Shown here: positions 1 to 19,574 of the stretch, in pieces
Layout of the letters: each line of letters starts with the position of its first letter
How positions within the stretch are numbered: position 1 is the first letter of the stretch
DNA from: Cenococcum geophilum
Taxonomy: Eukaryota
DNA: 64,000 nucleotides
Direction of reading: 5' to 3'
NCBI GenBank assembly: GCA_050273025.1
Contig: CP158635.1
Span: 8,494,001-8,558,000, forward strand
Notes under the pieces: generated by a model
Told to the model about the DNA's origin: nothing
Seen by the model: the letters and a program-made list of their open reading frames with translations, nothing else
Database searches by the model: none
Position numbers and translations under genes: made by a program

Positions 1-269
1 CTTTCTATATAAAATCAGAAGCCCCACGCGAGCCATCGCGGGCACGAGAACAGTAGAGGGTTGGAAAATGGATTGTCGAGGCGACGATAAGGTCGAAGGC
101 GCGCTAAGGCCCTCCATACTAACCTAGTACTAACCTAGGCCTCAAAAACGCGTCCGAAAAGTAGGGGCCACCACCTAGGGGGGGTGCGATATTTGGACGA
201 TATGTCGAGGACCTTGGGGGCTCGTGCGTAACCCGAGGTTATGCCAAGCTTAACCCGGACCTCCGATAC
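1..269 (-). mobile_element. Terminal 269 bp of an unRIPped CryptonF copy (rest lies left of the window), inserted in a copia LTR
   Basis: Aligns with the ends of the RIPped Cryptons at ~8596-8874 and ~13603-13880 but keeps CpA/TpG/CpG. Ends CCTCCGATAC and is followed directly by LTR sequence CTACACGATGG. Confidence 0.85.
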
Positions 270-2896
270 CTACACGATGGCCCGCGCGCTGTCACGTGAC
301 ACGTCGCTGAGCTCAAAGAGACTGCCCAAGTACCCCCCCTACCAACACACCCCCCCAGGCTCTATGAGCTCTAGCGAATAGGAAACTCCTCCGGGATGAC
401 TATACCATGCTCCGTAAGGTCGTGGTTAATAGGTAGGGGTAGTACAAGTAGTAAGAAATGAAATTGGGAAAAATGGAAATTTCGAATATCGACGACGCTC
501 GATCGCCCGTCTCCCATGCTGAAAAGTAGTATTAGTAAGCCTTTGAAATCTGAAACTGAGTCGATTGGTATCAATTCCGAGGTTTCGCCGGTCGTAGTAT
601 GATTTCCTAATTAGGACTAGGTGACCCAGGAGACTTTGGTGACTCCGACACCCATCTTGAACGCCTCATGGGCGACCTTTGGTAGAGCCTTCGTCAAGCC
701 GTCTGCTGGCTGATCCATGCTCGGTATATGGTGTAGTTTAATCCTACCCCGTTCAATATCCTTGCGGAGCTTAATATCCGCATAGTGGTCCTTTGGTCTT
801 TTGACGAATCGATGCGTCTTGACCTTCTTGTGTTGAGTCGTCTCAACAGTCAGTGTCTGCCGCCAGCGAGGAGCCTCTGGTGACTGCAGGGCTTCCTTCA
901 ACATTCGCGGTATCTTGATCTTGTGCGGAGCTTTTGGATGAGACTCCGGATGAGGCTCCAGAGGGGTCGGCTGTATATGTGCGTGAGACGAGCATGCAAC
1001 TGCCGTATAATAGACCTTCTTTGGTTCAGTAGTCGCTGTCTCCACACCCCCCTCAAGCTGTTGGTCAATTCGGTAGACGCCGCTGTTATCAGAATCGACG
1101 TCGTCTTGATCGTTATGACCTTCGTCGCCCTTGGCGATCGTCGGTATTATGCTCTCCCTGCTTTGAGAGATCTGGCGCTTTGCCTTCGAGGCGTGCGCAA
1201 TATATTGAGGCTTTGAAGCCTGTCGAACGACATATAGGCCGTTCTTGCAAGTCGCTCTGCCCACCACCAAATCGTCGGAGTACCGTCGAATCGTACGGCC
1301 GCCTGTTTCCTTGTCAGGCCCAATGTAGAGCTTCTTGCGCTTCTCAAGAGCCGACTCCGATAGGAGCTTGTAAGGTGATTTGGGTGCATAGTAGGCCTCA
1401 GTGGTTACCGTGCAGGTGTTGCCGTCGTCCATTAGTAGGGGTATATGTACCGTCCCTTTGCCAATCGCATAGTGGATAGTCCCCCCTGACGTTCCTATTT
1501 CGTAAGGTGGCAATAAGGTCTTGTACTCAATGAACTGACTTTGTTCATTGCTTATTGTAATATTGGAACAGGAATCAAGGAACCAGTCGTCCTGATTGCT
1601 GTCGCCCAAGTCGTCGACTATGGCCATGCTGCTGATGAATAGGCCTTCTGCCGAGCCTCTGCCTGTCGTTCCGACTTGATGATTCGAATTCGATGTAGTC
1701 TCTACCCCATCCTGGGGTGGATCTATGCATAAAATATGCTTTTTGTAAGGCCTCCACGCCGGGTATCGAAGCTCCGGGTGAAGGTAGAAACACCTCTCCT
1801 TGTCGCCAGGGTGCTTGCCATTGCAATGTGAGCAGCGCTCAAGTTCCTTTTCTTCTGAATTGGATTTTGGTTGATCGTCTGGCTTCTTGCTGACTGAGGA
1901 CATCGCGATGGAGGTATCTGGTCGAGTACGACTCTCGTCCATAAGGTCGCTCACCAGTTCCTCTATTGTAATAAGGTCTTCCTCCCTTGTGACTCTCCTG
2001 GCTGCCTCTCGTCGATTAGCTGTCCAAATAGGAAACTCCTCTTCCACCGCGTGAAGCAATCGGGCGTGCGCCTGCTTCCTTGATATCGGCATTGACGCTG
2101 CATTTGATTTTCTCATGCCTGAGACGAAGGCTTCTGCGTAGGCTTCGAGCGAGGTGTAGTCTTTGCGACTAAGATCGAGCCATTGGTTCCATATTTGGTA
2201 GTCGTGAACGAGACCTTGCGCGGTACAGAGTGATCGAATTGAGTCAAGCAGGTCCTTGATGGAATCTCGCGGCTTGCCCGATGCGGCGAGACGATCGCGA
2301 ATCGATTCTGACACTGCTCCCTCTATTATCTCAAGTCCCATTATCTGTTTATGTCGCCATTCTCGGCGTTCGTTCGTATTCGTTGGCGGCTCTACAGCCG
2401 TACCTTGTATCATTGGTAGGAGGTCATGAAGCTCAAGTCGTCGTACGATTCGACGATACCATTCTTCGTAATTGCTGTCCCCTTTCAATACAGGAACAGC
2501 CCCAAGAGAGCTCTGGTATTCCTTCTTCTTTTGTACTGTGTCCGCCATGGTATGCAATCAATCGGTTTAACCGTATCGTGCGTGGCGTGTATTTGTATTG
2601 GTTTGTTATGAATTTCTGTCGCACCGTGCCGGCTCTGAATTCGAGGGTATGTGGCTTCGTGTCGACCAGTCAATTAGAAAATAAAATGGCAGCTGATAGA
2701 GCTTTGATGGAAGCTGCAAGAGGGCTCATAACCTGTCAGGGCACTGAGCAGGCTGATGGAATGATACATATGATGCTCTATGAGGAAGCTCAGGGGCTCG
2801 AAGGCCCCGAGAAGATATCTACACGATGGCCCGCGCGCTGTCACGTGACACGTCGCTGAGCTCAAAGAGACTGCCCAAGTACCCCCCCTACCAACA
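270..2896 (-). mobile_element. Non-autonomous Ty1/copia LTR retrotransposon, internally deleted, unRIPped
   Basis: Complete 163-bp 5' LTR 2734-2896 (TG...CA). The 3' LTR remnant 270-347 matches 2819-2896. Minus-strand PBS GGTTATGAGCCC (2722-2733, half-tRNA-iMet type). G-rich PPT at 348-359. Confidence 0.92.
617..2557 (-). CDS. Copia Gag-protease polyprotein fused in frame to RT N-terminal and RNase H C-terminal remnants
   Basis: Gag N-terminus (LKGDSNYEEW), Cys/His knuckle CSHCNGKH, protease WFLDSCS, GLY motif, RT start (EALQSPEAPRW), RNase H end (IPSMDQPADGLTKAL). No HHCC/DDE integrase and no YVDD. Confidence 0.88.
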   Translation of the reverse strand: MHTMADTVQKKKEYQSSLGAVPVLKGDSNYEEWYRRIVRRLELHDLLPMIQGTAVEPPTNTNERREWRHKQIMGLEIIEGAVSESIRDRLAASGKPRDSIKDLLDSIRSLCTAQGLVHDYQIWNQWLDLSRKDYTSLEAYAEAFVSGMRKSNAASMPISRKQAHARLLHAVEEEFPIWTANRREAARRVTREEDLITIEELVSDLMDESRTRPDTSIAMSSVSKKPDDQPKSNSEEKELERCSHCNGKHPGDKERCFYLHPELRYPAWRPYKKHILCIDPPQDGVETTSNSNHQVGTTGRGSAEGLFISSMAIVDDLGDSNQDDWFLDSCSNITISNEQSQFIEYKTLLPPYEIGTSGGTIHYAIGKGTVHIPLLMDDGNTCTVTTEAYYAPKSPYKLLSESALEKRKKLYIGPDKETGGRTIRRYSDDLVVGRATCKNGLYVVRQASKPQYIAHASKAKRQISQSRESIIPTIAKGDEGHNDQDDVDSDNSGVYRIDQQLEGGVETATTEPKKVYYTAVACSSHAHIQPTPLEPHPESHPKAPHKIKIPRMLKEALQSPEAPRWRQTLTVETTQHKKVKTHRFVKRPKDHYADIKLRKDIERGRIKLHHIPSMDQPADGLTKALPKVAHEAFKMGVGVTKVSWVT

Positions 2897-2921
2897 AGTT
2901 GCTTATTAAGATAAATATAAC

Positions 2922-3379
2922 GTAGCATATGGGGTTTTGCTCGTCCCTAGGTTTTGCTTATTTTAAATATTAAAATACGCAAGTAGGCCCCACCAAAAAT
3001 CACAAAAATCGCAGTGTAATATCTTAATAACCACTTAATAATAACTTCTAAAAATTTAAATTTGGACTTTTATATACGCCCTATAGCTCCTATTAAAGTT
3101 ATATAATAATTAGTTAAGTAGTTTTTAAGATATTATAATTTAGGGGCTAAAATAAGGCTAAAATACTATATCTTAAAAACCACTTAACTAATTACTATGC
3201 AACTTTAATAGAAGCTGTAAAGTGTATATAAAAGTCTAAATCTAAAATTTTAGAAGTTATTATTAAGTGGTTGTTGAGATATTACACTGCGATTTTTGTA
3301 ATTTTTGGTGGGGCCTGCTTGCGCATTTAGATGTTCAAAACGAGCAAAACCCAAGGACGAGCAAAACCCCGTGTGCCAC
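2922..3379. repeat. Foldback/MITE-like element with ~200-bp inverted arms, partly RIPped
   Basis: GGGGTTTTGCTCGTCC (2931) pairs with GGACGAGCAAAACCCC (ends 3370), and complementarity continues inward. Confidence 0.85.
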
Positions 3380-3414
3380 ATTAATCGATAAGCAAGTGGG
3401 CAGTACAAGCATGT

Positions 3415-3570
3415 GGCCCAAAAACCCCAAAAAAGGTTCTTTAATATCTTAACAACGGCTTAATAATAAATAATAAATAATTATAATTAGACTTTTATAC
3501 TTACTTTAAGACCCTAATTAAAGTTTTAAAGCAATTTAATAAGTGGTTTTTAAGATATAATAATTGGGAA
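3415..3570. repeat. Single arm of the same foldback family
   Basis: Shares the core TAATATCTTAA(T/C)AA...CTTAATAATAA...ACTTTTATA...AAGT(A/G)GTTTTTAAGATAT with 3018-3140 and, more divergently, 5171-5290. Confidence 0.7.
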
Positions 3571-3596
3571 ATTTTTTTAGCAACCGTTCCCTAACC

Positions 3597-4943
3597 CTAG
3601 CTGCTAGGGGCCCGGCTACGCTCGGGCCAGGTCTGAGGCCTAAGACTAGGTGTGGCCATGGAGTTCTGGGCATGATCCCTCAATTTCTGCCTCACAAAGT
3701 GCTCGACTTTTCTCCGACCCTCAGAGACAGATGAAGCGATTGAACTTCCCAGCTGGGCGACCACTCTATTCCCGCTGCCATCGTCAAAGCATACGCTGTT
3801 GTGACTAGACAACTCTCTAGCAATCCATTCCTGTGTCGTTCCGATATGCTCAGCCCCGCCAAAACGATACAGATGCATGGCGAGCATGGCGTATAGTTGG
3901 TAACCCAGCCAGACCCACTGAATAGTGGTAGGAGCAAAAATGAAGGCGATCAGCCCTCCAGGATATACCACAATGGAGCCAACGACGGTAAACATAGATA
4001 TTACTTCCCGAACACGATCTCCAAAGGCGCCCTTCCGATGGCGAATAGGATGACCGTAATGTCGAAAGAACTGAAGGACTAGCTCAGACGGCCCTTCAAT
4101 CAAAAGAAAGCCCTTAGAGAAGTCTTCAACTTCACACAACAATTGTTCGTCCTTTGGCCTGTTTGATAGTGGCGTCTTCCCCCCGTGCTCCGGTGCAGTC
4201 CGTACTGACGAAGGTTCGACCGACTTCCGCCGAACACGGCAAAAAAGTCCTACAAGTTTGAGAAGTAAAGGAGCAAGGTACCAAATAGAGAAGAGACTCC
4301 TCCAGACGGTAGCGTTAACAATCCCAACAGCGAGTGTAATGATCTCGCTCGCTATTATGGCTGCAATATACCGGAATTTCAGTCGGCCAATATCGCCATC
4401 AACTATTGGCAGGTTCTCGGCAACAGTAGAATCCGCTCTCAAAATATTGAGTACGAACACAGGGCGCTGTGCTCTGACTTCCTGCACGACTCTTGCCGCC
4501 GATTCGTCGTCTCCTGGTGTGGCAGGATCCACCGTGTCGATTCGGGGCTGCCAGGGAATAAGACCTAGCACCGTAATCCAGAAGGCGTTCCGCGCCGCTT
4601 TTCTCTCACTCTTACTGCCGTCGGCCATCCGCATGACGTAGTGATGTCCTGTATCATTGTAGAAAGCCGTCCCGAGCATGTCGCCACGGCAATAGCCTTT
4701 CCACAGGCCGGCGAAAACGAGCCTATCCAGGGCCTCGACAGCAGCCTTATGAATAGGCCCGCCGATAGGCATCAGGAAAACAATGGCAATGAGAGATTTC
4801 AGGCTCCGGATGTTGTAGAATCGTGATGGCCATAACATGCGATGGAATATGGAGGCTGAGGCTACCTCCGTGCCTAGGTAGCCGACTATGGTGCCTAGGG
4901 CCGTAAATGCGGCAATAGACAGTGTGTTCGCGTCGGCCCCCAT
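3597..4943 (-). CDS. Uncharacterised fungal multi-pass membrane protein, 448 aa, intronless
   Basis: Uninterrupted ORF with no RIP bias. Hydrophobic segments at the N-terminus, ~190-235 and ~315-360. Motifs LWPSRFYN and QFFRHYGHP. Confidence 0.85.
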   Translation of the reverse strand: MGADANTLSIAAFTALGTIVGYLGTEVASASIFHRMLWPSRFYNIRSLKSLIAIVFLMPIGGPIHKAAVEALDRLVFAGLWKGYCRGDMLGTAFYNDTGHHYVMRMADGSKSERKAARNAFWITVLGLIPWQPRIDTVDPATPGDDESAARVVQEVRAQRPVFVLNILRADSTVAENLPIVDGDIGRLKFRYIAAIIASEIITLAVGIVNATVWRSLFSIWYLAPLLLKLVGLFCRVRRKSVEPSSVRTAPEHGGKTPLSNRPKDEQLLCEVEDFSKGFLLIEGPSELVLQFFRHYGHPIRHRKGAFGDRVREVISMFTVVGSIVVYPGGLIAFIFAPTTIQWVWLGYQLYAMLAMHLYRFGGAEHIGTTQEWIARELSSHNSVCFDDGSGNRVVAQLGSSIASSVSEGRRKVEHFVRQKLRDHAQNSMATPSLRPQTWPERSRAPSS

Positions 4944-5124
4944 GCTTGATTGTTTGTGTTGGAGCTTATAGGTTTAGTAGTTAAGGATTGTGTTGTGCTT
5001 AATGGGCATCAAATTTATTCAATGACGGAGACGTCATAAATTAGACGCTCCGTAGTAGAATTTGGTTACGGGGCAGGGGAAGCACGTGGAACGGCTCCCT
5101 ATGCCCCTAACGTGTTTTATCAGT

Positions 5125-5469
5125 CATCCAGTAGCCCCAAAAACTACCAAAAATTGGAAAAACTGTACCTTAATATCTTAATAATGACTTAATAATAAAT
5201 TCCAAAATTTTATAATTAGCCTTTTATACCTATTTTAAACCTATTATTAGATTTAAAAAATAACCTATTAAGTAGCTTTAAAAATATCGTAAATATCGCA
5301 ATTTATCTTAAAATTGGGAGCTAAAACTTAATATACTAGAACTTTATTAAAAGTCTTAATATAGGTATAAAAGGCTAATTATAACATTTTGGAATTTATT
5401 ATTAAGCTATTATTAAGATATTAAGGTATAGTTTTTTTTATTTTTAGTGGTTTTTAGGGCTATTAGATG
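5125..5469. repeat. Second foldback/MITE-like element of the same family
   Basis: CATCCAGTAGCCCCAAAAACTACC pairs with AGTGGTTTTTAGGGCTATTAGATG (allowing RIP). Arms of ~110 bp. Confidence 0.8.
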
Positions 5470-5705
5470 TCTATCACATATCGGGGGGGCTGATTTGGCG
5501 CGGTTACAACCCGGGTTAATACAAGGTTAAGGCTACCCCTGCTAATAACGCGCCCGAACCCCACACGAGGTCGCGCAGCGACCGCCCCCAAGTACTTTCG
5601 CACGCGATTTTAGGCGAAAAGGTACATAATTTATATTAGATCGGTACTTCTGGACGGTCGCGTAATATTACTCTAAATTTATAACACCTAAACAGGCTCT
5701 ATTCC

Positions 5706-5906
5706 TATATTAAGGCGTCTTAGTTACTATAGTATAGTCCTATATTAAGACGTCTCGGTCACTAATATAGTCTTATATTAAAACGTCTTAGTTACTATAG
5801 TGCAGTTATATATTAAGGTGTCTTAGTTACTACAGTATAATCGTATATAGAGGCGTCTTAGTTACCGTAGTATAGTTATATATTAAGGCGTCTTAGTTAC
5901 TATAGT
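5706..5906. repeat. 35-bp tandem repeat (6 units) downstream of the Crypton gene
   Basis: Unit TATATTAAGGCGTCTTAGTTACTATAGTATAGTCC. Confidence 0.9.
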
Positions 5907-5917
5907 AAAATAACTAT

Positions 5918-8500
5918 TTAGATATTCTTATAAAGCTAATCTAAAGAACGCCGACCTTGTAGCTATTCTAGCTAGTTAATAGCCTATCTCTTATCTCTTA
6001 CTATACCATCTTCTACGCGCCGTCTTATATCCTTAATTATCCTATAGTAACGGCTATAGAATATAGCCTCGCCGTTATCCCGCTAGTGTGCCCCCTAGTA
6101 ATAATTAAGAGCTTTAATTAACGGCCTACCTGCTAGCCCTAAAGTCTACTTAATCTAAAGCTAGAAGACTAAATTACCACCTTAAAGTATTTTATATTTC
6201 CTTAGCGGCGCCTATAGGTTAAGGATAAATAGGAGAGATAGTTAAGTATTAGCTTATACCTACGCTAGGAGGGGCAATACAGATATAGTAAATAGCTAAA
6301 TAGGTAGTGCGGATATTATAGACAGCTAAGTAAATAGTGCGGATATTATAGACAGCGGCTAAGTAGGTAGTATAGATATTATAAACGGCTAAGCAGGCGG
6401 CGTAAATATAGTAGATATTATAGTAAACGGCGTAGGCTTGCCTAAAGGTAGATATATAGACTCTATAGGCCCTATCTAGATACCCGTCTTCCCTTACTAG
6501 ATCTATATAAATATAAATAATGCTAATAACCTTTCTATTTCGCTAAGGCGTTTTAAGATTATCTATATATATAATTAAACCCCCTTTATCTTAGAGATTG
6601 CGGTCTTATATTTTAGCTTAGCTACAGCCTTATAGGTAGGCTAATATTTCCGCATTATTAGCTTATTCGGTATAACTACGTCAGCTAGCGAGCTTTTTAC
6701 CCACATAGTAAACCTCTAGTACTCCTTATAACCAAAAAGGGGGTCCTTCTATAGGGGGTAGAGCGGGAACTACTTATATAGGATTACTAAGTCCTATAAT
6801 AGGATTACCCTAAGCGCGTAAAGAAGGCGTAAAAATCTTAAGCCTATAAGGTTAAGCTATATAACCTTATTATCGGCCCTACCTAGGTAGTAGGCCTTTA
6901 TATATTTTAGCTAGACGTTAGTCTTAGGCCATATCTTTAAATAAAGGGCCTCCTTTAGCACCTCCCGTGCGTAGGGGAGAAAGTAGCCCTTTTTTTCCTT
7001 TAGAAAGCTAGCGATTAACTATATAAACGTATAGAGTAGGTAGCTAAGGTAGGCTCCTATTATCGCGTCTATATTTTAGCGTCCAGCCCATCTAATTTAA
7101 GTCTCCTTAACGCCGCTAAGCTTAGTATACTAAACGCTCTGCTTATAGGCGCTATAGGTCTTCTCCTTTAAGTAAATTCCTACCCCCTAGAACATCTTTT
7201 TATTCTATTTAAACTGCGTATAATAGCTTAGCGGCTATTATAGTACTTTAATACTACTAGGGAAGACGTATAGGTTATAGTAATCCTCTAGCTACTAAAA
7301 GGATAAAAAGCTTTTAGCGCCGTCTTTACCCTAGCGGTTAAAGAAGTAGAAGGCTACTATAGAGAGGGGGTAAAGGATAGGGTTGGCGTTCCGTATATAG
7401 CCTATATACTTAACCTTACTATACTAATTCTGCTTCCCTTATATTATTAATATAATTATATATAGCGCTAACTTATTCAGTTTAGGCCCTTTATTCTCTA
7501 GTTTAATAAAAATAAAGTTAGTAAGCTAAATATCTTATCTACTTTTACTATAGGTAATAGTAGTATAGCCTAAGGAACGGGTTAGAAAACGGCAGCTATA
7601 TAGACTAGGTAGGGTATATATAAACCTAATAAATACTTAGCTATAGTTTAAAGGTAAGACTTAACTAAACCTAGTATCTTAGAGCCTATCTCCTAGTACT
7701 AAGTAATTGCCTTTTTAAGCCCTTTAACGTTATAGCCGCTAGTAATTATAAATAGGCCTTAATTAATAAAGTTAACGCGTTAAATCTAGTCTTTATTACG
7801 GCGGACGCTATCTAGTACTACTAAAAGCTTCGCCCCCCATAGCGGCTGCGAGGTCTTACCTTTTAACTACTATACGTAAAGCTTAGTAATAGCGAAGATA
7901 TAGCTATTTATAACTAAGTATTAGACTATTTTATTAAATAGGGCATCTAGAGCCTCCTTATCCCATATCTCCCCTTCCTCCTTTATAGCTTCCTCCTCTA
8001 TGCCTACAGCTGCCCCTACGGCTGCCTCTACGGCTGCCCCTGTAGCTGACTTTCCCTTTAGCTACCCTACCCGCTTAGCCGTCTTCTACCTCTTCTTTAC
8101 CCACTCGCTATCTTTCCATATCTTTTTCCGTTTTAACTTCCGTTTTTAATAGCTAGCAGCCTATAATTCCCAATTAATAACTTACTACTTTAGAAGTAGG
8201 TAAAGCTTATCTTTTATTACCTAGGCGCTGTTTATATTACCTTCTAGTCTTATATACTAGTCTTCCTACTTTTTCTACTTTAGCTCGTACGCCTTTATAG
8301 TATTCTTTAAGCGCTAAGCCTTATAAATATTATATAGCTATACCGTCTAGGCCATAAATTTATTCTAGAGGCTATAGGAAGAGGGGGAGAAGGAGGCTAG
8401 AGGGACTTCCTTTAACTATAAAGTAGACCGTAAGGTAAGAAGATTCTTAAAAGACTCTATCTCCGCAAGAGGTTAGGGGGAAGACGCGTAAGCGCGGCGC
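5918..8500 (-). pseudogene. RIP-inactivated Crypton tyrosine recombinase (NDC10-II-like YR domain + C-terminal GCR1_C domain)
   Basis: De-RIPped reading gives GKQNQHGKVEYMGCMRNANPILCPLS..AFYFFNRWG (~7440-7330), KTHSAxKQS..AELSGVEETQIRxAGRWNMDAMIGAYLS (~7165-7040) and GPSIEALD..WGA.WRDNGEAMFYSR (~6130-6050). Start position approximate. Confidence 0.85.
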
Positions 8501-9109
8501 GGGTATAGGTAAATAAAGCCACTAAACACATAAATATTAATAAAGGAGGAGAAGAAGAGAGCTCTATATTATAGAATTAGAATTATAGTAGGCCGTTCTA
8601 TATAAAACTAGAAGCCCTACGCAAGCTAGGAGCTAGCGTAGGTATAAAAATAGAAAGAAGGTTAAAAATTAGATTATTAAGGCGATAATAAGGTTAAAGG
8701 CGCGTAATAAGGTCCTTTATATTAACCTAGTACTAACCTAGGCCTTAAAAACGCGTCTAAAAAGTAGGGGCCACTACTAAAAGGGGGGGGGGAATATTTA
8801 GACGATATGTCGTGGACCTTAGGGGGTTATACGTAACCTAAGGTTATACTAAGCCTAACTCAGACCTCTAATACCTATCACATATTAGGGGGGCTGATTT
8901 AGCGCGGTTATAACCTAGGTTAATACGAGGTTAGGGCTACCCTTACTAATAACACGCCCGAACCCTATATGAGGTCGCGCAGCGACCGCCCCCAAGTACT
9001 TTCGCACGCGATTTTAGGCAAAAAGGTATATAATTTGTGTTAAATTGGTACTTCTAGATAGTTATATAATATTACTCTAAATTTATAACACCTAAACGGG
9101 CTCTATTCC

Positions 9110-9450
9110 TATATTAAGGCGTCTTAGTTACTATAGTATAGTCCTATATTAAGACGTCTTAGTTACTATAGTATAGTCCTATATTAAGGCGTCTTGGTTA
9201 ATGCAGTATAGTCCTACATTAAGACGTTTCGGTTACTATAGTATAGTTATATATTAAGGCGTCTTAGTTACTACAGTATAGTCCTATATTAAGATATCTT
9301 AGTCACTAGTATAGTCTTATATTAAGATGTTTTAGTTACTATAGTGCAGTTATATATTAAGGTATCTTAGTTACTATAGTGTAATCGTATATAGAGGCGT
9401 CTTAGTTACCGTAGTATAGTTATATATTAAGGCGTCTTAGTTACTATAGT
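9110..9450. repeat. 35-bp tandem repeat (10 units) in Crypton copy B
   Basis: Same unit as 5706-5906. Confidence 0.9.
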
Positions 9451-10167
9451 AAAATAACTATTTAGATATTCTTATAAAGCTAATTTAAAGAACGCCAACC
9501 TTATAGCTATTCTAGCTAGTTAATAGCTTATCTCTTATCTCTTACCATACCATCTTTTACGCGCCGTCTTATATCCTTAATTATTTTATAGTAATGGCTA
9601 TAAAATATAGCCTCGCCGTTAACCCGCCAGCGTACCCCCTAGTAGTAATTAAGAGCTTTAATTAATGGCCCACCCGCTAGCCTTAAAGTTTACTTAGTCT
9701 AAAGCTAGAAGACTAAATTACCGCCTTAAAGTATTTTATATTTCCTTAGCAGCGCCTATAGGTTAAGGATAAATAGGAGAGATAGTTAAGTATTAGCTTA
9801 TGCCTACGCTAGTAGGGGTAATATAGATATAGTAGACAGCTAAGCGGGCGGTATAAATATTATAGATAGCTAAGCGGACGGTGCGGATATTATAGATAGC
9901 GGCTAAGTAGGTAGTACGGATATTATAAACGGCTAAATAGACGGCGCGGATATAGTAAACGTTATAGTAGACGGTATAGGCTCGCTTAAAGGTAGATATA
10001 GACTCCGTAGGCCCTATCTAGATACCTATCTTCCCTTACTAGATTTATATAAATATAAATAATACTAATAACCTTTCTATTTCGCTAAGGCGTTCTAAGA
10101 TTATCTACATACGTAATTAAACCCCCTTTATCTTAGAGATTGCGGCCTTATATCTTAGCTTAGCTAT

Positions 10168-11615
10168 TGTGACGGCTCGAACCATCGAACAAATGTCTCG
10201 ACAGAGACTTGAACGAATGCTTGCAAGATCAAGCGAACGAATGCTGTATTACGAAGATATTAAGCTAAGGAGCAAGAGAAGGTGGTGAGGCCACGTCTAT
10301 ATACACACGCCAAGTCTTAAGCGAACCCCTGACTAGGTGACGCGCTCCAGCGCCGTCACATCACCCCCCCCTTTGAAAAAGCCTGCCCTCAGGCGTCATT
10401 CTCCAGTACTCGTCTACCTTGTATACAGTTGTAGTTATTTGCTGCAGGTGGGGCAGCAGTAGTCGATGAGATGCTGCAGGCAGAGCAGCGAGTGTCAGTT
10501 GGAATGCTGCAGGCAGAGCAGCAAGGGTCGATCGTAGTGCTGCGGGCGTAGCAGCAGAAGTTAATTGTGGTACTGCAGGCAGGAGCAGTAGTGGTCGAAT
10601 TAAGGTTTAGCTGCAGGCAGAGCAGCAGATATCTGTCGGGTAGTAGTACGGTACTAGCGGCGGTAACGATAGTGGTCGAGCACAGAGCTCGTCTATCGGT
10701 TGTCTTGTAATAGCAGGTTGAACGTAGAGCTTGGGCTATCAATTGGTCGAGTGATCGTAGGCGTAGAGGCACGATCATTGTCTCGTCGACTGTTGGCAGG
10801 GCAGCAGTCGTTTGTTGTAGCAGTACGATGCAAGCGGAAGTCGTGGATCGCAGGCGTAACGGCACGATCGTGGTCAGGTCGTAGTAGCAGGCATATTGGC
10901 GCTACTGTTGTCTAGTATATAGATCGTATGCATATCGGCACGATCGGTAGTCAATAGCAGAGTGATGCCAGCGTCGGTAGTCCTAGTCGATTTCGTTCCT
11001 CAGAGTATACGTGGCTTAGTGGCTGTCAAAAAGGACTATTTAGGTAGCAGTACGGTGCCAGCGTCCGTAGACGTACGGTCGTTCGGTCGGTCGGTCGATC
11101 GATCGTCGACAGATATACGCGTTAGACGCGTCGTCGTCGTTCGGTCGATAGGTCGGTCGGTAGGCACACGCGTTCGGTTGACGGATATACGCGTTGCTTG
11201 GTCGGTCGACGAGCTCGTACGGTCGGAAAGAGGTTACTGCCCGGCACGTGCTTCCCCATAGCATAGGCGGCCGTTAGGTAGAGAATTGAAATAAAAACAA
11301 AAAGAAACATGAGGGTGCCTGCATGGTATAGGGACTAAGCTTCTCGCAACCCAGCTACCACAGGACTTCGTGACCTGAGACATGATACCGCAGCCTGCAT
11401 ATGACTGGGGAGCTTAATATAATGTGACGGCTCGAACCATCGAACAAATGTCTCGACAGAGACTTGAACGAATGCTTGCAAGATCAAGCGAACGAATGCT
11501 GTATTACGAAGATATTAAGCTAAGGAGCAAGAGAAGGTGGTGAGGCCACGTCTATATACACACGCCAAGTCTTAAGCGAACCCCTGACTAGGTGACGCGC
11601 TCCAGCGCCGTCACA
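10168..11615 (-). mobile_element. TRIM (miniature non-autonomous LTR retroelement), 1448 bp
   Basis: Apparently identical 193-bp LTRs 10168-10360 and 11423-11615 (TGTGACGG...CCGTCACA). 5-bp TSD GCTAT. PPT at 10361-10375 on minus. No gag/pol motifs internally. Confidence 0.93.
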
Positions 11616-14060
11616 GCTATAGCCTTATAGGCGGGCTAATATTTCTATATTATTAGCTTATCTGGCATAACTACGTTAGCTAGCAAGCTTTCTACCCGCG
11701 TAGTAAACCTCTAATACTCCTTATAGCTAAAGAGGGGGTTCTTTTATAGGGGGTAGAGCGGGAACTACTTATATAGGATTACTAAGTCCTATAATAGGAT
11801 TACCCTAAGCGTGCGGAGGAGGCGTAAAAATCCTAAGCCTATAAGGTTAAGCTATATAACCTTATTATCGGCCCTACCTAGGTAGTAGGCCTTTATGTAT
11901 TTTAGCTAGATATTAGTCTTAGGCCATATCTTTAAACAGAGGGCCTTCTCTAGCACCTCCCGTGCGTAGGGGAGAAAGTAGCCCTTTTTTTCCTTTAGGA
12001 AGCTAGTAATTAACTATATAAACATATAAGGTAGGTAGCTAAGGTAGGCTCCTATTATCACGTCTATATTCTAGCGTCTAGCCTATTTAATTTAGATCTC
12101 CTTAACGCCGCTAAGCTTGGTATACTAAACGCTCTGCTTATAGGCGCTATAGGTCTTCTCCTTTAAGTAAATTCCTACCCCCTAAAATATCTTTTTATTC
12201 TATTTAAACTGCGTATAATAGCTTAGCGGCCGTTATAGTACTTTAATACTACTAGGGAAGACGTATAAGTTATAGTAGTCCTCTAGCTGCTAAAAGGATA
12301 AAAAGCTTTTAGCGCCGTCTTTACCCTAGCGGTTAAAGAAGTAGAAGGCTATTATAGAGAGGGGGTAAAGGATAGGGTTAGCGTTCCGTATATAGCCTAT
12401 ATACTTAACCTTACCGTACTAATTCTACTTTCCTTATATTATTAATATAATTATATACAGCGCTAACTTATCTAGTTTAGGCCCTTTATTCTTTAGTTTA
12501 ATAAGAATAAGGTTAGTAAGCTAAATATCTTATTTACTTTTACTATAGGTAATAGTAGTATAGCCTAAGGAACGGGTTAGAAAACGGCAGCTATATAGAC
12601 TAGGTAAGGTATATATAAACCTAATAAATACTTAGCTATAGTTTAAAGGTAAGACTTAACTAAACCTAGTATCTTAGAGCCCGTCTCCTAGTACTAAGTA
12701 ATTGCCTTTTTAAGCCCTTTAATATTATAGCCGCTAGTAATTATAAATAGGCCTTAATTAATAAAGTTAACGCGTTAAATCTAGTTCTTATTACGGCGGA
12801 CGCTGTCTAGTACTACTAAGAGCTTCGCCCCCTATAGCGGCTATAAGGTCTTACCCTCTAACTACTACGCGTAAAGCTTAGTAATAGCGAAGATATAGTT
12901 ATTTATAACTAAGTATTAGACTATTTTATTAAATAGGGTATCTAGGGCCTCCTTATCCCATATCTCCCCTTCCTTCTTTATAGCTTCCTCCCCTATACCT
13001 ATAGCTGCCCCTATAGCTGCCCCTATAGCTGCCCCTATAGCTACCCCTATAGCTAACTTCCCCTTTAGCTACCTTACCCGCTTAACTATCTTTTACCTCT
13101 TTTTTACCTACTTACTATCTTTCTATATCTCTTTCTGTTTTAACTTCCGTTTTTAATAGCTAGCAGCCTATAATTCCTAGTTAATAATTTACTACTCTAA
13201 AAATAAGTAAAGCTTATCTTCTATTACCTAGGCGCTATCTATATTACCTTCTAGTCTTATATACTAGTCTTCCCACTCTTTCTACTTTGACTCGTACGCC
13301 CTTATAGTATTCTTTAAGCGCTAAGCCTTATAAATATTATATAGCTATACCGTTTAGGCCTTAAATTTATTCTAGAGGCTATAGGAAGAGGGGGAGGAGG
13401 AGGCTAAAGGGGTTTCCTTTGACTACAAAGTAGACCGTAGGGTAAGAAGATTTTTAAAAGACTCTATCTTCGCAAGAGGTTAGGGGGAAGACGCGTAAGC
13501 GCGGCGCGGGTATAGGTAAATAAAGCCACTAAACACATAAATATTAATAAAGGAGGAGAAGAAGAGAGCTCTGTATTATAGAATTAGAATTATAGTAGGC
13601 CGTTCTATATAAAACTAGAAGCCCCACGTAAGCTAGGAGCTAGCGTAGGTATAAGAATAGGAAGAGGGTTAAAAATTAGATTATTAAGGCGATAATAAGG
13701 TTAAAGGCGCGTAATAAGATCCTCTATACTAACCTAGTACTAACTTAGGCCTTAAAAACGCGTCTAAAAAGTAGGGGCCACTACCAAAAGGGGGGGGTAA
13801 TATTTAGACGATATGTCGCGGACCTTAGGGGGTTGTGCATAACCTAAGGTTATGCTAAGCCTAACCTGGACCTCTAATACCTACCTACAACTCCTAAGTA
13901 AGAAAGCACCACGTGCTAAGAGGCAAATTTTGGGACAGTGAGACTTATATTACAATAGCAATAGTAAGTAAGGAGGATTAATATTTATTACGCTAGTTAA
14001 GCGGTATATATATATATAGATAGCAACCATAAAAGAAGAGTTGCCAGTATTGGGAATAAA

Positions 14061-14140
14061 GGCAAGTGGTTACCACATAAGGCAAATTGCCATCACGTGT
14101 GGCAATTTGCCGTTACGTGCGGCAAGTTGCCGTCACGTGT
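14061..14140. repeat. 20-bp tandem repeat, 4 units (GGCAANTTGCC-GTCACGTG consensus)
   Basis: GGCAAGTGGTTACCACATAA / GGCAAATTGCCATCACGTGT / GGCAATTTGCCGTTACGTGC / GGCAAGTTGCCGTCACGTGT. Confidence 0.8.
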
Positions 14141-14558
14141 CGCCGCGGCAGTAGCGTGGCGAGGAGCCTTAAGCTCCTCGCCCTCCCTCATTTAAGAACA
14201 ACAATTATTATCATACTATCTACGAACCGTAGCTACGTGATATCACCTTGTGTAACTAACATTTATAAAAGATTTTACTATATTTAATAATAACTTTAGT
14301 AAACTTTATACTGTTTAATAACTAATTAAAATATATTACTAATATATTTAAAATTGTATACTTTATTTACTATTTTTTTTCTATTTTTTTTTTAAAACAA
14401 AGGATAACTTATAAGTTTACTTAATTTAAAGTATTTTTTAGAGGAACCCTATTATAATTACAATATATTATAATGATATTTAGATCTTACTTTAAAATTT
14501 TGCTTAAAGTTTATTTAGGGTTTATCTAGGCTATCTTTTAATACCTTTACTTCGGCTA

Positions 14559-14896
14559 TAGGCAAAACTCCTTAATACGATACCGGGTATATAATGATAT
14601 ATTTGGTATTACGATCTACACGCCCTAATCATGCCCTTTTTGGTGTGACTAGCGATAATCTGACTTTGGGCGATATCGTTAAGCTCTACCACCAATATCG
14701 GTATAACTAGTTGCATGGGAAGGGGGTATATCTGGCCTATAAGGAGGGAAATCTATACCCTTTAGGCTTTAAGAACCACTTTTTGTTAAAGTTTTACTGC
14801 TTATTTACCCTACACGTGACTCTTGATATAACAATACCATTGGTATTACGATACATTTGGCGCCAAAACCCATAACGTACTAAGGAGTTTTGCCTG
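14559..14896. mobile_element. Tc1/mariner-type MITE, 338 bp
   Basis: 21-bp TIRs TAGGCAAAACTCCTTAATACG (RIPped) / CGTACTAAGGAGTTTTGCCTG, flanked by TA on both sides. Confidence 0.85.
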
Positions 14897-15122
14897 TAGT
14901 GGGTTAAATTAAGCGAGCGGGGTGAAGTGAGGCCTCACTTCATCTCACTCAATCGACTCTGACCTTTCCGCTCCTCGCCGCTAACCATCCAGTACCTACC
15001 TTTTCGTGTCCCTACCGTCCTATGCATCCGAGAGCCATTTCCCGACCGTCGACTGGCTGGCCAACTTCGATCTTAATGTCTAAAACGCAACAAGTGTACC
15101 AATTAGGCCCTCTACGCAACTT

Positions 15123-16955
15123 CTAGAAAGTCAGGTCCTTTTCCCTTCCGAACATCCTTCGGAGATAGGTCCAGCAGTCGTCCCTTTCTGTTGATAATGG
15201 AATGGGCTTCGTGATTCCCGTTGGGCCGCGATCAATGCGCATCGGATGCTGTCCTAGATAGATCCATTCCAGCTCTGGCAGCGAATCAGCGTATTTCGCA
15301 GCTATCGTAACCATTTCATTTCGATGCTGCATCTCCCATACTAGTTCGAGCTTCTTTACAGGGTCTCCTTCCCTGAAGAAGGGTTGGGCGACGAGGGTCG
15401 CCAAATTACGGGGAAACCTGTCCTCATAATAGCGCTCGGGATCCCCTTCCCCCTGAGTCTCTAGGTCTAGGTTTTGCTCAATATAAGTATCCCGGGAAAA
15501 TGCGAGTTTGCGAAGATTTCGTAAATTTTGGATACAATTCTGCATAGCATCATGGTTGATGACCCACGAATGCCTCCATCCTGCTTGGCATCCCGCACTC
15601 AGACAAAGTTGCTCTAGTCTGTGTATGGTGGATATCTGATCCAGTGCGCTTTGCGGAATATGATCTTGATTCTCAGGCCATCTTAGGCTCAAAGAAATGA
15701 GATTTTTGAATTGTCTGCGGAGCAAAGGGAGTAGTTGTTCTTCAAGGAATTGAGGTGCTTCACCATCGATCCTCAATTTTCGGATGTGGGAATTCGCTTG
15801 AAGAAAGCCTAGTGAAGGGTTCATCATCTTAAGGCTACTCCACACAAATACTTCGAGATTGGGCAGATACCCACACGTGTTGAAGAAGTCTGCAACCCTC
15901 GGATTTTTACTGATATCAACCTCCAAGAACCGGATCGGGCTGGAGCCGCCCGGCTGAATTAGGATATCGAGCCAGGCAGGGTCGTACTTCATAATGCTGC
16001 CAATCTTTAGATCCTGTAACCGCCTAAAAGATGGGCGTTCGTTGACAGGGTCGGGTAGCTGAACGGACGGAGTTGATCCTAGGATGTTAAGGCATGCCCA
16101 TGTGAGAGACTCCAGAGTTGGTGCTGCAAGACAAAGTAGATTGCAGATAAGTGGCGATGTGGCAACATCTTCTCCACCACCCGAAATCGTCCATATCACA
16201 TCCAAATACAGTGAATTCAAGCGCCATCTACATTGGTCTGATGACAGACCAAGGGAGAACTCCTTGTCAACCGACACGCGCTGGAGAACAAGATGCCGAA
16301 GATTTGAGGAAATGATTGCCTCAAAGAAGTTCTTGTCGACGGGGGCGCCATCCGCCCAGAACAGATATTCTAAACGAGGCAAAACTTGTGTATTCGAAAG
16401 GACCAAACTGATTTTGGGCATGTACTCTTCAAAGAAAGTCTTGCATGCTTCATCAAGACGTGCCTTTCGCACGTCTGCATCTAACTGAGCGAAGTCCTCG
16501 GAAAGCTCAATCTCATGGCGATAGGTGATCCATCCAGGGTTCGTGGCGACAGTGATTTTCCGGATACAGGCCCCTATGGATGGTAGCCTAGTTTTGCCGT
16601 GGTTTTCGGAACGTTCCTCATGCTCCTTAAGGAGAACGCCGAGGATACCGATAGCGCTATCGCTGTAGTCAAGTCTGACGTTCGCAAACTGACGGGAGCG
16701 AGCAAGTTGGCGGCAGTCGCGATTGACTAGAGCGAAATTTCTCAAGTCCTCTTGAGGAACTAGCTGAATTACGTGCCATACGAGCTCGATAGGTAAGCGG
16801 GACAGTAGGAAATCGGATAAGAAAGGCCGGCCTTCGTTGATACGATCGAATGAGAGGGGGATCGGATCCTCAATTTCTTTGCCGAAGTCATCCTTTGTTC
16901 CGGAAAAGGTGGGCATCATCAAGCCCATCAGGTCGCTGTGCTGAGACGACGGCAT
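15123..16955 (-). CDS. F-box protein with LRR-like C-terminal region, ~610 aa, intronless
   Basis: F-box LSRLPIELVWHVIQLVPQEDLRNFALVNRDCRQLAR followed by LxxLxL repeats. First ATG at 16955 (CCAACATG); the track's 17084 start is a TTG. Confidence 0.88.
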   Translation of the reverse strand: MPSSQHSDLMGLMMPTFSGTKDDFGKEIEDPIPLSFDRINEGRPFLSDFLLSRLPIELVWHVIQLVPQEDLRNFALVNRDCRQLARSRQFANVRLDYSDSAIGILGVLLKEHEERSENHGKTRLPSIGACIRKITVATNPGWITYRHEIELSEDFAQLDADVRKARLDEACKTFFEEYMPKISLVLSNTQVLPRLEYLFWADGAPVDKNFFEAIISSNLRHLVLQRVSVDKEFSLGLSSDQCRWRLNSLYLDVIWTISGGGEDVATSPLICNLLCLAAPTLESLTWACLNILGSTPSVQLPDPVNERPSFRRLQDLKIGSIMKYDPAWLDILIQPGGSSPIRFLEVDISKNPRVADFFNTCGYLPNLEVFVWSSLKMMNPSLGFLQANSHIRKLRIDGEAPQFLEEQLLPLLRRQFKNLISLSLRWPENQDHIPQSALDQISTIHRLEQLCLSAGCQAGWRHSWVINHDAMQNCIQNLRNLRKLAFSRDTYIEQNLDLETQGEGDPERYYEDRFPRNLATLVAQPFFREGDPVKKLELVWEMQHRNEMVTIAAKYADSLPELEWIYLGQHPMRIDRGPTGITKPIPLSTERDDCWTYLRRMFGREKDLTF

Positions 16956-17313
16956 GTTGGGAAGCTTATTCGGGTCGTTTTTGGAGGAGTACTGAGTGCA
17001 CAATGCGTGATGGGAGAAGATAAAGAAGTGATATATACGTTGCGACAGAGGATTACGCAGATTAGGTGAAGTGAAGATTGCCAAGAGCGGGGAAACCCAC
17101 TGATTAACCGAATCAAAGGTTGTTCCTGCGGACGACGCTAAGGCCTCGGTATATCCTCGCCAAAAAAGTCTATTCGTCCAAAGCTTCGAAAACTTTCCTC
17201 GTCACAGATGGCATTGTCAAACGAGGGTCTCGCCGGGTTCATTGGTACCTGCAAAGACACACTCCAAAATCTTAGCCTGCATCCTTGATTCCGGAAGCTG
17301 GAGAGACGTTTTT

Positions 17314-17625
17314 ATGTTCAATTGGAGTGAGCTACCCCTGGCGAAATTATATCTCATTGCGTTGCATGAAGGCACCCATGGCGTATCATTTAGATCAATT
17401 CACCTGAAGCGTCCAATTATCGATGAGTACTGGTTCTGCGGCTTGCATCCACTTCCCGACAATGAAGAATGTGATTTCTTGCAAAGCTTCCATTACGTCG
17501 CCCGAGAGGACATAGACACGAGCGTGACTCTAGCAGATGGAGATGGCGAGGATATCCACAAATGGCCTTCTATGCTCGCAGACAATTACCAGTTGGTGGA
17601 TACGGAGCCTAGCCTCATGTACTGA
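17314..17625 (+). CDS. Possible small protein or gene fragment, divergent from the F-box gene
   Basis: ~103-codon unRIPped ORF with protein-like composition; no recognised motif. Confidence 0.3.
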   Translation: MFNWSELPLAKLYLIALHEGTHGVSFRSIHLKRPIIDEYWFCGLHPLPDNEECDFLQSFHYVAREDIDTSVTLADGDGEDIHKWPSMLADNYQLVDTEPSLMY

Positions 17626-17962
17626 ACACTAAAAGTTACCGATAAGCAGTAAGCCCTTTGTTTCCTAGTTTCTGTCACTATGCCACCAAGCCGAAAGGAC
17701 AGTGTGAGTGTTCATTGAGTCTGGAGCTCGGCCTGTGTTGCTGAAAGCTCCGGGAGTACTGGCCAAGGCCCTAAAACCTCGGCTAGTGTAGATATTTTAG
17801 CTCCGGCCCAACTTCACTAGGTATACAATCTAACTTTTACTACGCTATATTAAGACGCTATAATTTAATTGTTTTTTAATTTTAACGTTTTTAAAGGTGG
17901 TTTTAATAATTTATTATGTTTCTATAATAGAAGAATAGCTTATAGATAAAGTAAGTTGTAGT

Positions 17963-18028
17963 AGGTTATATTAAGGTTATATTAAGGTTATATTAAGGTT
18001 ATATTAAGGTTATATTAAGGTTATATTA
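17963..18028. repeat. 11-bp minisatellite (AGGTTATATTA)x6
   Basis: Direct reading. Confidence 0.9.
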
Positions 18029-19574
18029 AGGATCTAATATAGGTATAAATTCTAGAGAAGTAGAGGCAAATTAGAGTAGAAAAGGTATTTATTAATATTC
18101 TATCTATATTATTATTTAAATTTAATTAGACTATATTAGTTCCTACTAAATCCCTTTTAGCCTCTATAGAATAATAACGATAGTATAAGGTAATAGGCTC
18201 TATATTACCTAGACTACTATAAAAGGTAAGTAAGTAACTAGCTTAATGCTAAGTATAGCTATACAGAACAATATATATAGGTAAGGCGACTTCGTCACCT
18301 AACGGATAGCTCTATTATAAGCAGCGTAAGTATATATTTAGGTTATATCTATAATTTAATATAGAAATAGATACCGCCTAATAGCCTAAATATATAATTA
18401 TATAATAAGGATCTAATTAGGATATAGAATAAGAACTTTCTCTAAAATAGGTACGTAAATCTTTTTATAAGGATAGTATAAGTATAAGATATAAATTATA
18501 TTTTAGATAAAACTATATTATATCTATAATCTAACCTTAATATATTATTAATAAGGTTCTTTATAGCCCTATTTAAGGTCTAAATATTAGTATAATAGCT
18601 ATATGTAGTACTTTAGAGTAACTTTTAGGTTATATCTTAAAGAACTTATTTCCTAGGATAATCTAAGCTCTTTAAACTTAGATAATAGTAGGAGTAAGGG
18701 TTCTAGTACTCCTAATACTACTTTATAGCTAAATACTATAACAAAGCGCATTTCTAGCGCCCTAGCTCTATATACTAAGGTATAGTATATTAAACTTAGT
18801 AAGCGCCTAATATAGGTACTATTCTTCTATATTAAGGTAATATCTAGTATATATCTGGCTTATATCTAGGATCTAACTTTAATATAGTACTATAGTAAAC
18901 ATCCCTTTATCTATATTCTGCTAGAGGATATTTTCTCTAAATAGGATTATACTATTAGGAAGATTATAGTTATAAGTGCTATATATCTCTATTTTATCCT
19001 AGATCTAACTATAATAAGATCTAAATACTAAGTATAATATTTATACTTAGGGAATAAAATTTACTAATAGTTATAGAGGATTAATTAAGTATATTAAATT
19101 ATATTTCTAGGTAAGAACCTAAATATATCTATATTATAACTAGCTTTTAACCTAAAAAATAAAGAAAAATATAGGCTATATAATTTATAGTATAAAGCCT
19201 AGAGGTTAAAAAGAACTATAATTTAGTAATTTAGCTAGTATATTTATCTATATATCTATATTATATCCTAGATCTAACCTACTATAGTAGCTTAGTAGAC
19301 CCTTTATAAAGCTATCTAGATAGAGGTAAAACTAAATATTATATACCCTATTAGTAAGGCAGTTAAAAAGGCTAGAATTTATAATAATATAAACTATTAC
19401 TCTTCTATCTAGAATATATTAATAATATATTAATAATCTAATTAGAAATAGAACTTAATTTTACTAAATATAACGCTATTAGATATTATAGATAACCTTA
19501 AAGGTAATAAGCCTTTTAATATAGTTAAGAGCTATACTAAGTATCTAGGATAGGTTAGATTTTAAATATAGTAT

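Follow-up and report, generated by a model that had tools for sequence, protein, structure and literature searches.

How do two copies of a transposon come to lie head to tail with no filler at their joint? The question is raised by a 64,000-nucleotide stretch of Cenococcum geophilum DNA (assembly GCA_050273025.1, contig CP158635.1, positions 8,494,001 to 8,558,000 of the forward strand; hereafter the window), in which two Crypton copies, A and B, meet in this way. Of all classes of eukaryotic DNA transposons, Cryptons are the least understood: a circular intermediate was proposed for them in 2003, and their activity was first seen in 2023. Here, we show that members of this Crypton family insert without target duplication, just after the motif DATAHCT (D being A, G or T, and H being A, C or T), and that the A/B joint is exact and reads as the joint of a circular copy would. 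The likely explanation, in our view, is recombinase-mediated, conservative, site-specific integration at the end of a resident copy.

The window alternates between blocks of normal guanine-plus-cytosine (GC) content and AT-rich blocks, as is typical of repeat-induced point mutation (RIP), and its DNA is fungal. Repeat comparison and whole-length blastn give two direct matches, 5471-5764 with 8875-9168 (89% identity) and 8780-8877 with 13786-13883 (90%), and therefore two copies head to tail that have CTA at 8875-8877 in common, which bears out the dimer proposed in the original prediction. The sequences on which that proposal was built are also in place: CTATCA at 5471, CTACCT at 13881 and the joint sequence, CTCTAATACCTATCACATATTAGG, at 8866-8889. 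An alignment of A with B over 3398 bases shows 263 transitions and 4 transversions, with 120 transition sites mutated in A alone and 143 in B alone. Because the two are mutated at different sites, they are separately mutated copies and not an assembly duplication, as the original prediction had argued from their independent RIP.

Both copies belong to a Crypton family whose identity can be read through the RIP damage when stops are read as X, as was done in all domain searches of RIP-mutated frames. Pfam searches of six frames of copy A recover NDC10_II on the minus strand (E 5.1e-18, 65.6 bits). This domain represents the Ndc10/Crypton-type tyrosine-recombinase fold. In the least mutated relative, L004 (GC 0.50), NDC10_II is found at residues 421-706 (E 8.4e-36), followed in the same frame, C-terminal to the recombinase, by GCR1_C at residues 891-970 (E 3.9e-13); GCR1_C is undetected in the six frames of copy A, which is more mutated than L004. 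With E thresholds of 1 (copy A, all six frames) and 0.1 (L004, three frames of the coding strand), no further Pfam family is recovered, and reverse transcriptase, DDE transposase and Rep/helicase are absent from these searches. Between the 90-nt ends, the best terminal inverted repeat is reached by 155 of 1000 shuffles and the best direct match by 162 of 1000, neither being beyond chance; subterminal repeats likewise do not exceed it. The combination of recombinase and GCR1_C defines CryptonF in the available part of Kojima & Jurka (PMC3212892). From this domain content, the missing reverse transcriptase, DDE and Rep/helicase domains and the lack of terminal inverted repeats, we therefore classify the element as a CryptonF of about 3.5 kb with one predicted minus-strand gene, encoding a tyrosine recombinase joined to a GCR1_C DNA-binding domain; the Crypton identity first proposed for A and B thus holds. 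Between the two domains lie 30-bp tandem repeats (in the L004 coding frame; window 6272-6419 and 9816-9963) that encode a 10-residue repeat rich in Pro, Ser, Ile and Ala, so that the protein linker is itself repetitive.

Gene content, ends and missing inverted repeats are ordinary for CryptonF. The portions of Kojima & Jurka (2011; PMC3212892) available to us describe fungal CryptonF elements of 2.9-4.6 kb, such as CryptonF-1_MC and CryptonF-1_CI, the size class to which our element belongs; they likewise carry the recombinase and GCR1_C in one protein and have no terminal inverted repeats. The terminal words are also the same: ours are TA[T/C/A]CTA (left flank) and TACCT (right end), and Additional file 1 of that paper gives TAACTA for CryptonF-1_CI (Coccidioides) and TAACTA/TACCTA for CryptonF-1_MC (Microsporum canis). 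The family differs from those elements in copy number, with at least 123 left ends against the 2-19 copies given in the same portions, in its exact head-to-tail arrays, which those portions do not mention, and in that the sampled copies here are all RIP-dead.

The other copies all come from metagenome contigs, where a scan with a 22-letter left-end motif identified at least 123 loci (L001-L123). Among the matches listed, 37 distinct copies are complete (35 from these loci and 2 from the window); all are RIP-mutated, with GC 0.376-0.501, and none has a family open reading frame (ORF) longer than 152 aa. Transitions number about 120-145 per kb between family copies, a very strong RIP signature, while transversions define subfamilies, with 0-1 transversion per kb within each. 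At least three subfamilies can be told apart by transversions, one typically of 3497 bp, one of 3501 bp and one of about 3.4-3.6 kb (A and B, L009 and L030), and the near-absence of transversions inside each suggests separate bursts. A tblastn search of the 682 kb examined for other Crypton families found this family alone.

These relatives allow the joint to be read back from RIP, as ...CCGATACCT followed by ATCACATATCGG..., and unmutated forms of both sides are present in related metagenome copies. A third copy, C, is cut by the window edge and matches copy A 3126-3407 at 76.6% (blastn, 1-271); its terminus, found as a right-end pattern match, is ...CCGATACCT, followed by A and then by unrelated flank. 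In alignment, the GC-rich end of C (window 1-272) reads ...GGACCTCCGATACCTA, also given as ...GGACCTCCGATACCT, and this little-mutated end confirms the proposed reversal of CTCTAATAC to CTCCGATAC. Likewise, the left end of copy A itself, CATATCGGGGGGG, agrees with the proposed reading CATATCGG. The joint is not peculiar to the window. Among the matches listed, 23 records of tandem joints correspond to 22 distinct ones, the window's and 21 more on 14 loci, and every one reads ATACC-TAT[CT]A[CT]ATAT with no filler. Three loci (L023, L066 and L071) have three joints each, spaced about 3497 bp apart, and several arrays run past contig ends. The arrays seen belong mostly to the 3497-bp subfamily.

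What belongs to the element at such a joint, and what to its target, can be judged from solo insertions, of which we collected 111 unique left junctions, after merging look-alike flanks, and 25 unique right junctions. TCAC follows the flank in 111 of the 111 left junctions. Counting back from TCACAT, the preceding bases are A (111) at position -1, T (111) at -2, C (109) at -3, T56/C30/A24/G1 at -4, A (106) at -5, T (102) at -6, A (84) at -7 and G51/T33/A26/C1 at -8. The resulting consensus, D-A-T-A-H-C-T-A, mimics the element's own right end, G-A-T-A-C-C-T. The right junctions read GATACC, then T in 24 of 25, then A10/C8/G4/T3, and ATACC is present in each of the 45 right ends that BLAST recovered. 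Outside the element on this side, at +5 to +8, there is a weaker T-A-T-H signal, with A at +6 in 14/25 (p = 0.008), T at +7 in 18/25 (p = 5.5e-7) and A at +8 in 17/25 (p = 1.6e-4).

Since TCAC is invariant, TCA is a fixed part of the element, as is the A that precedes it, and no base of the joint was brought along from a former site. The original prediction had instead seen a spacer brought from an earlier site, of which only CTA matched the new target. Both ideas are contradicted by the junctions: the left flanks follow DATAHCT, in imitation of GATACCT, and the A of CTA comes from the element, the same position being variable at the 25 solo right junctions. At the left junction the base at -4 is the target's and the A at -1 the element's; at the right junction the C equivalent to -4 belongs to the element, whereas the base that follows CT is again the target's. 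For both strands, exchange must thus have taken place inside the shared CT or at its edges; on the left side of the dimer this CT lies at 5471-5472. These tabulated ends are a check that was proposed with the original prediction, as was a look for ordinary target duplications in other copies. In a nested insertion in locus L011, the two flanks abut at 415/414 of an uninterrupted copy, with nothing duplicated or lost beyond CT. Instead of a true target duplication, the element is bordered by a short terminal direct repeat, DATAHCT at the left flank and GATACCT at the right end. The L011 insertion (1240-4737; also seen in L012) is a Crypton copy nested in the 35-bp repeat region of an oppositely oriented copy; its target reads GATATCT and other repeat units read GACGTCT, so the host copy may have been RIP-mutated before it was struck, with transposition continuing between rounds of RIP.

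We propose that the arrays arise by recombinase-mediated integration at resident ends. Exact head-to-tail multimers are a familiar product of site-specific recombination: in Cre/loxP, Flp/FRT and tandem lambda-type lysogens, a site-bearing circle recombines with a chromosomal site, and the resident integrant then offers further sites. The arrays described here, head-to-tail copies with exact joints, resemble these. A circular Crypton copy, with a joint reading ...GATACCT joined to ATCACAT..., would meet a chromosomal site ending in DATAHCT, and the recombinase would join the two. The preferred half-site would be well reproduced at the right end of a resident copy, and the whole circle joint at an existing array joint, so that new circles would tend to land there and arrays would grow. 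In the window, the dimer would have formed first, RIP would then have mutated both copies beyond function, and an insertion of a long terminal repeat (LTR)-type element into B would have come last. The circle model itself is Goodwin's, as quoted in the accessible parts of PMC3212892 and PMC9977147, and the suggestion that one circle integrated into a resident copy's end, one of two routes in the original prediction, remains the best mechanism. Eight of the 123 distinct strict-motif left ends among the matches listed lie directly after a Crypton right end. DATAHCT occurs about 4 times per kb on two strands, and Crypton right ends make up about 47 of 2697 such sites in Crypton-enriched DNA. Joints are thus commoner than random choice among motif sites would give, by a margin that is uncertain because the sampled DNA was selected for its Cryptons, heavily mutated ends escape the motif, and joints in one array are not independent.

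Several points weigh against integration at resident ends. That estimate of enrichment comes from just such a selected sample and incomplete pattern. The 37 complete copies are all RIP-mutated and without a long ORF, and any circle, excision or activity in this family is putative, its joints being fossils. At the position at which 106 of the 111 sites carry A, the left half-site in the window, GATGTCT, carries G. A 2-nt crossover departs from the overlap of 6-8 bp that the available text of PMC3212892 quotes for tyrosine recombinases, simple sites there having inverted arms of 11-13 bp and an overlap that must match; here, unlike in a Cre/loxP-type core site, the arms do not exceed chance and only CT need be identical. 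The same exact joint would also come from integration of a dimeric circle or from recombinase-mediated sister-chromatid exchange. Once a dimer exists, unequal crossing-over can lengthen an array, so that joints within one array are not independent events. Finally, transversion distances (4 for A and B, 5 for B and L009) do not decide between local duplication and separate integration, because subfamilies are nearly identical internally.

The rival that survives best needs no circle. Unequal exchange or slippage at the short repeat DATAHCT / GATACCT could have made the first dimer, and homologous unequal crossing-over the longer arrays. An imperfect direct repeat of 7-8 bp does flank the element, and the joint as found is just what an exchange inside this repeat would yield; unequal crossing-over, once a dimer exists, produces arrays with three or more joints. 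Adjacent array copies also differ by 79-92 transitions per kb, against a median of 108 for non-adjacent copies of the same subfamily (88 pairs), but a lower distance between neighbours is also expected of two near-saturated RIP targets. In arrays whose first left flank can be seen, the repeat is imperfect: GATGTCT in the window, GATAACT in L018 and L041, GATATCT in L017 and L069, TATATCT in L027, AATATCT in L061 and GCTATTT in L040. None of these has the perfect GATACCT flank that slippage would favor, a weak argument that bears on the founding step, and 2-4 bases of identity are a poor substrate. We consider a circle-free origin unlikely, and think that unequal crossing-over probably contributes to array lengthening.

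Far less probable is the event originally envisaged, which would resemble those of the Tn916 family, with a 6-bp spacer, CTATCA, brought from an earlier site between the arms CCGATA and TATCGG, and only CTA matching the target. In this family of conjugative transposons, a tyrosine recombinase acts through a circular intermediate whose joints carry variable hexamers from the previous site, termed coupling sequences. The Crypton shares the tyrosine recombinase and, in our proposal, the circular intermediate, but its joint bases are invariant except by RIP: they are identical at every tandem joint save for C-to-T changes, and the constant TCAC leaves nothing that was carried over. The arms do exist in the unmutated ends of the family. 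The best inverted match across the joint, CCTCCGATA against TATCGGGGG, pairs 8 of 9 positions with a perfect core of 6 bp. When the two 25-nt ends are shuffled, however, 504 of 5000 trials score at least as well, and wider windows do no better than chance. In the left half-site of the target it is GATA that is conserved, with the weaker T-A-T-H on the right, yet the spacing differs, at 6 bp between half-sites in targets and 9 bp from arm to arm at the joint, and CT, the crossover, lies off-centre between the arms. The palindrome is unproven, and the arm-spacer-arm layout as first drawn does not fit.

That an assembler falsely duplicated a single copy is the least credible alternative: the family is highly repeated in public sequencing runs, and no run contig listed bridges the joint, but 267 of the 3398 aligned bases distinguish A from B, their repeat arrays differ in unit number by about 150 bp, only B carries the LTR-type insertion, and 21 further exact joints occur in separately assembled contigs. 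The run data comprise four public runs aligned at 85% likeness and kept as contigs of about 200 bases from hundreds of diverged copies; the joints and loose ends that appear in them come from cross-mapping between copies. Among the pieces listed, none spans 8877 by 31 bases on both sides, a piece of run X5 (8660-8887) extends 10 bases past the joint, and read depth over the Crypton bins exceeds that over the single-copy stretch 3873-4840 by a factor of hundreds.

A bolder reading starts from the bounding of exchange to CT, which is unusual for a tyrosine recombinase. Crypton recombinases might swap strands in a 2-nt crossover guided mainly by one half-site, or exchange one strand pair and leave replication to finish, and arrays might be a working intermediate of copy-number gain. 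A dimer would form at a resident end or through sister-chromatid exchange, and a monomer circle would then be cut out while one copy stays behind. We hold this to be improbable. If true, it would explain how active Cryptons both excise cleanly and rise in number, as in Chlamydomonas (PMC9977147, in the part available). There, the accessible text of Lopez-Cortegano et al. (2023) reports that activity, clean excision and copy-number gain of CryptonF-1_cRei were directly seen in C. reinhardtii. The terminus of that element, like ours, mimics its target with one middle mismatch tolerated (CACCG/CAYCG there, GATACCT/DATAHCT here); unlike it, our family consists of fossils only, and arrays go unmentioned in that text.

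Table 1. Features of the Crypton dimer and its surroundings in the window.
Feature	Position	Strand	Details
Copy C, right-hand end (window orientation)	1..271	-	Cut by window edge; little RIP-mutated
Left target half-site GATGTCT	5466..5472	+	6/7 positions fit the family consensus DATAHCT
Crypton copy A	5473..8876	- (coding strand)	3404 bp; heavily RIP-mutated; GC 0.376; ends set from family junctions
35-bp tandem repeats in copy A	5706..5907	.	5.8 units; counterpart array in copy B at 9107-9451, 9.9 units
Tyrosine-recombinase domain remnant, copy A	6719..7561	-	Pfam NDC10_II; residues 439-719 of read-through frame
Head-to-tail joint	8868..8889	+	A ends ...CTAATACCT at 8876; B begins ATCACATATTAGG at 8877
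Crypton copy B	8877..13882	-	5006 bp including later 1448-bp insertion; about 3.55 kb without it
Small LTR-type element in copy B	10168..11615	+	1448 bp; direct terminal repeats of about 193 bp, TGTGAC...GTCACA, 99% identical
Right flank of dimer, ACCTACAA	13883..13890	+	Begins with A, a base of the target, at the variable position that follows CT

The LTR-type element within copy B has a 5-bp target duplication, GCTAT, at 10163-10167 and 11616-11620. Its GC content is 0.48 and it bears no sign of RIP, though it lies inside RIP-mutated DNA, and it therefore arrived after the RIP of copy B. With TG...CA ends, 33-bp internal tandem repeats, no long family-like ORF and a read depth that suggests many copies, it looks like a recently active non-autonomous LTR retroelement, and its intact state hints that RIP is no longer effective here.

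Both flanks of the dimer are repetitive. On the left, a 350-bp inverted-repeat element at 5122-5472, of foldback type or resembling a miniature inverted-repeat transposable element, has 133-nt arms that are 85% complementary and 85 nt apart, and its right arm stops exactly at the Crypton insertion point; diverged relatives (about 67-79% identity) occur at window 2990-3567 and in L013, L022 and L065. On the right, 13884-14265 is a repeat of about 380 bp that holds 20-bp tandem repeats with CACGTG (14081-14140), and in L048 (1103-1477) an 85%-identical copy of this repeat carries a solo Crypton at the corresponding point, but with another left flank. In the public runs, a loose end at 13877 corresponds to the left flank of L001; the piece common to the two is the end of a repeat of about 70 bp, found in several loci with differing continuations. 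The relation between the dimer's right flank and those of L048 and L001 might reflect a recombinase-mediated rearrangement. A second Crypton sharing the core at the right flank was considered and rejected, as 13884-18205 contains no recombinase and only an F-box gene remnant, on the minus strand. Farther right, past the repeats, at about 15000-17800, a long open stretch of normal GC on that strand contains an F-box domain (Pfam PF00646, E 5.5e-6) and is presumably a host gene.

In the literature we searched on tandem or head-to-tail Crypton arrays, no paper was, by its title or abstract, concerned with Crypton arrays, and the available part of a curation guide (PMC8969392) describes Cryptons as "generally low copy number". 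We thus found no account of a Crypton family that is both high-copy and present in exact head-to-tail arrays within the titles, abstracts and partial texts covered. This family supplies more than 100 fossil insertion sites and more than 20 exact head-to-tail joints. The joints give the sequence that a circle joint would have, and the insertion sites give a clear target motif that copies the element's end. Together the junctions bound the strand swap to CT, without target duplication, and the joint, the resident end and DATAHCT sites are concrete substrates for a recombination assay. Arrays at resident ends suggest a testable way for a cut-and-paste element to increase its copy number. They also mean, for the annotation of genomes, that Cryptons can be high-copy and arrayed, not just rare and dispersed.

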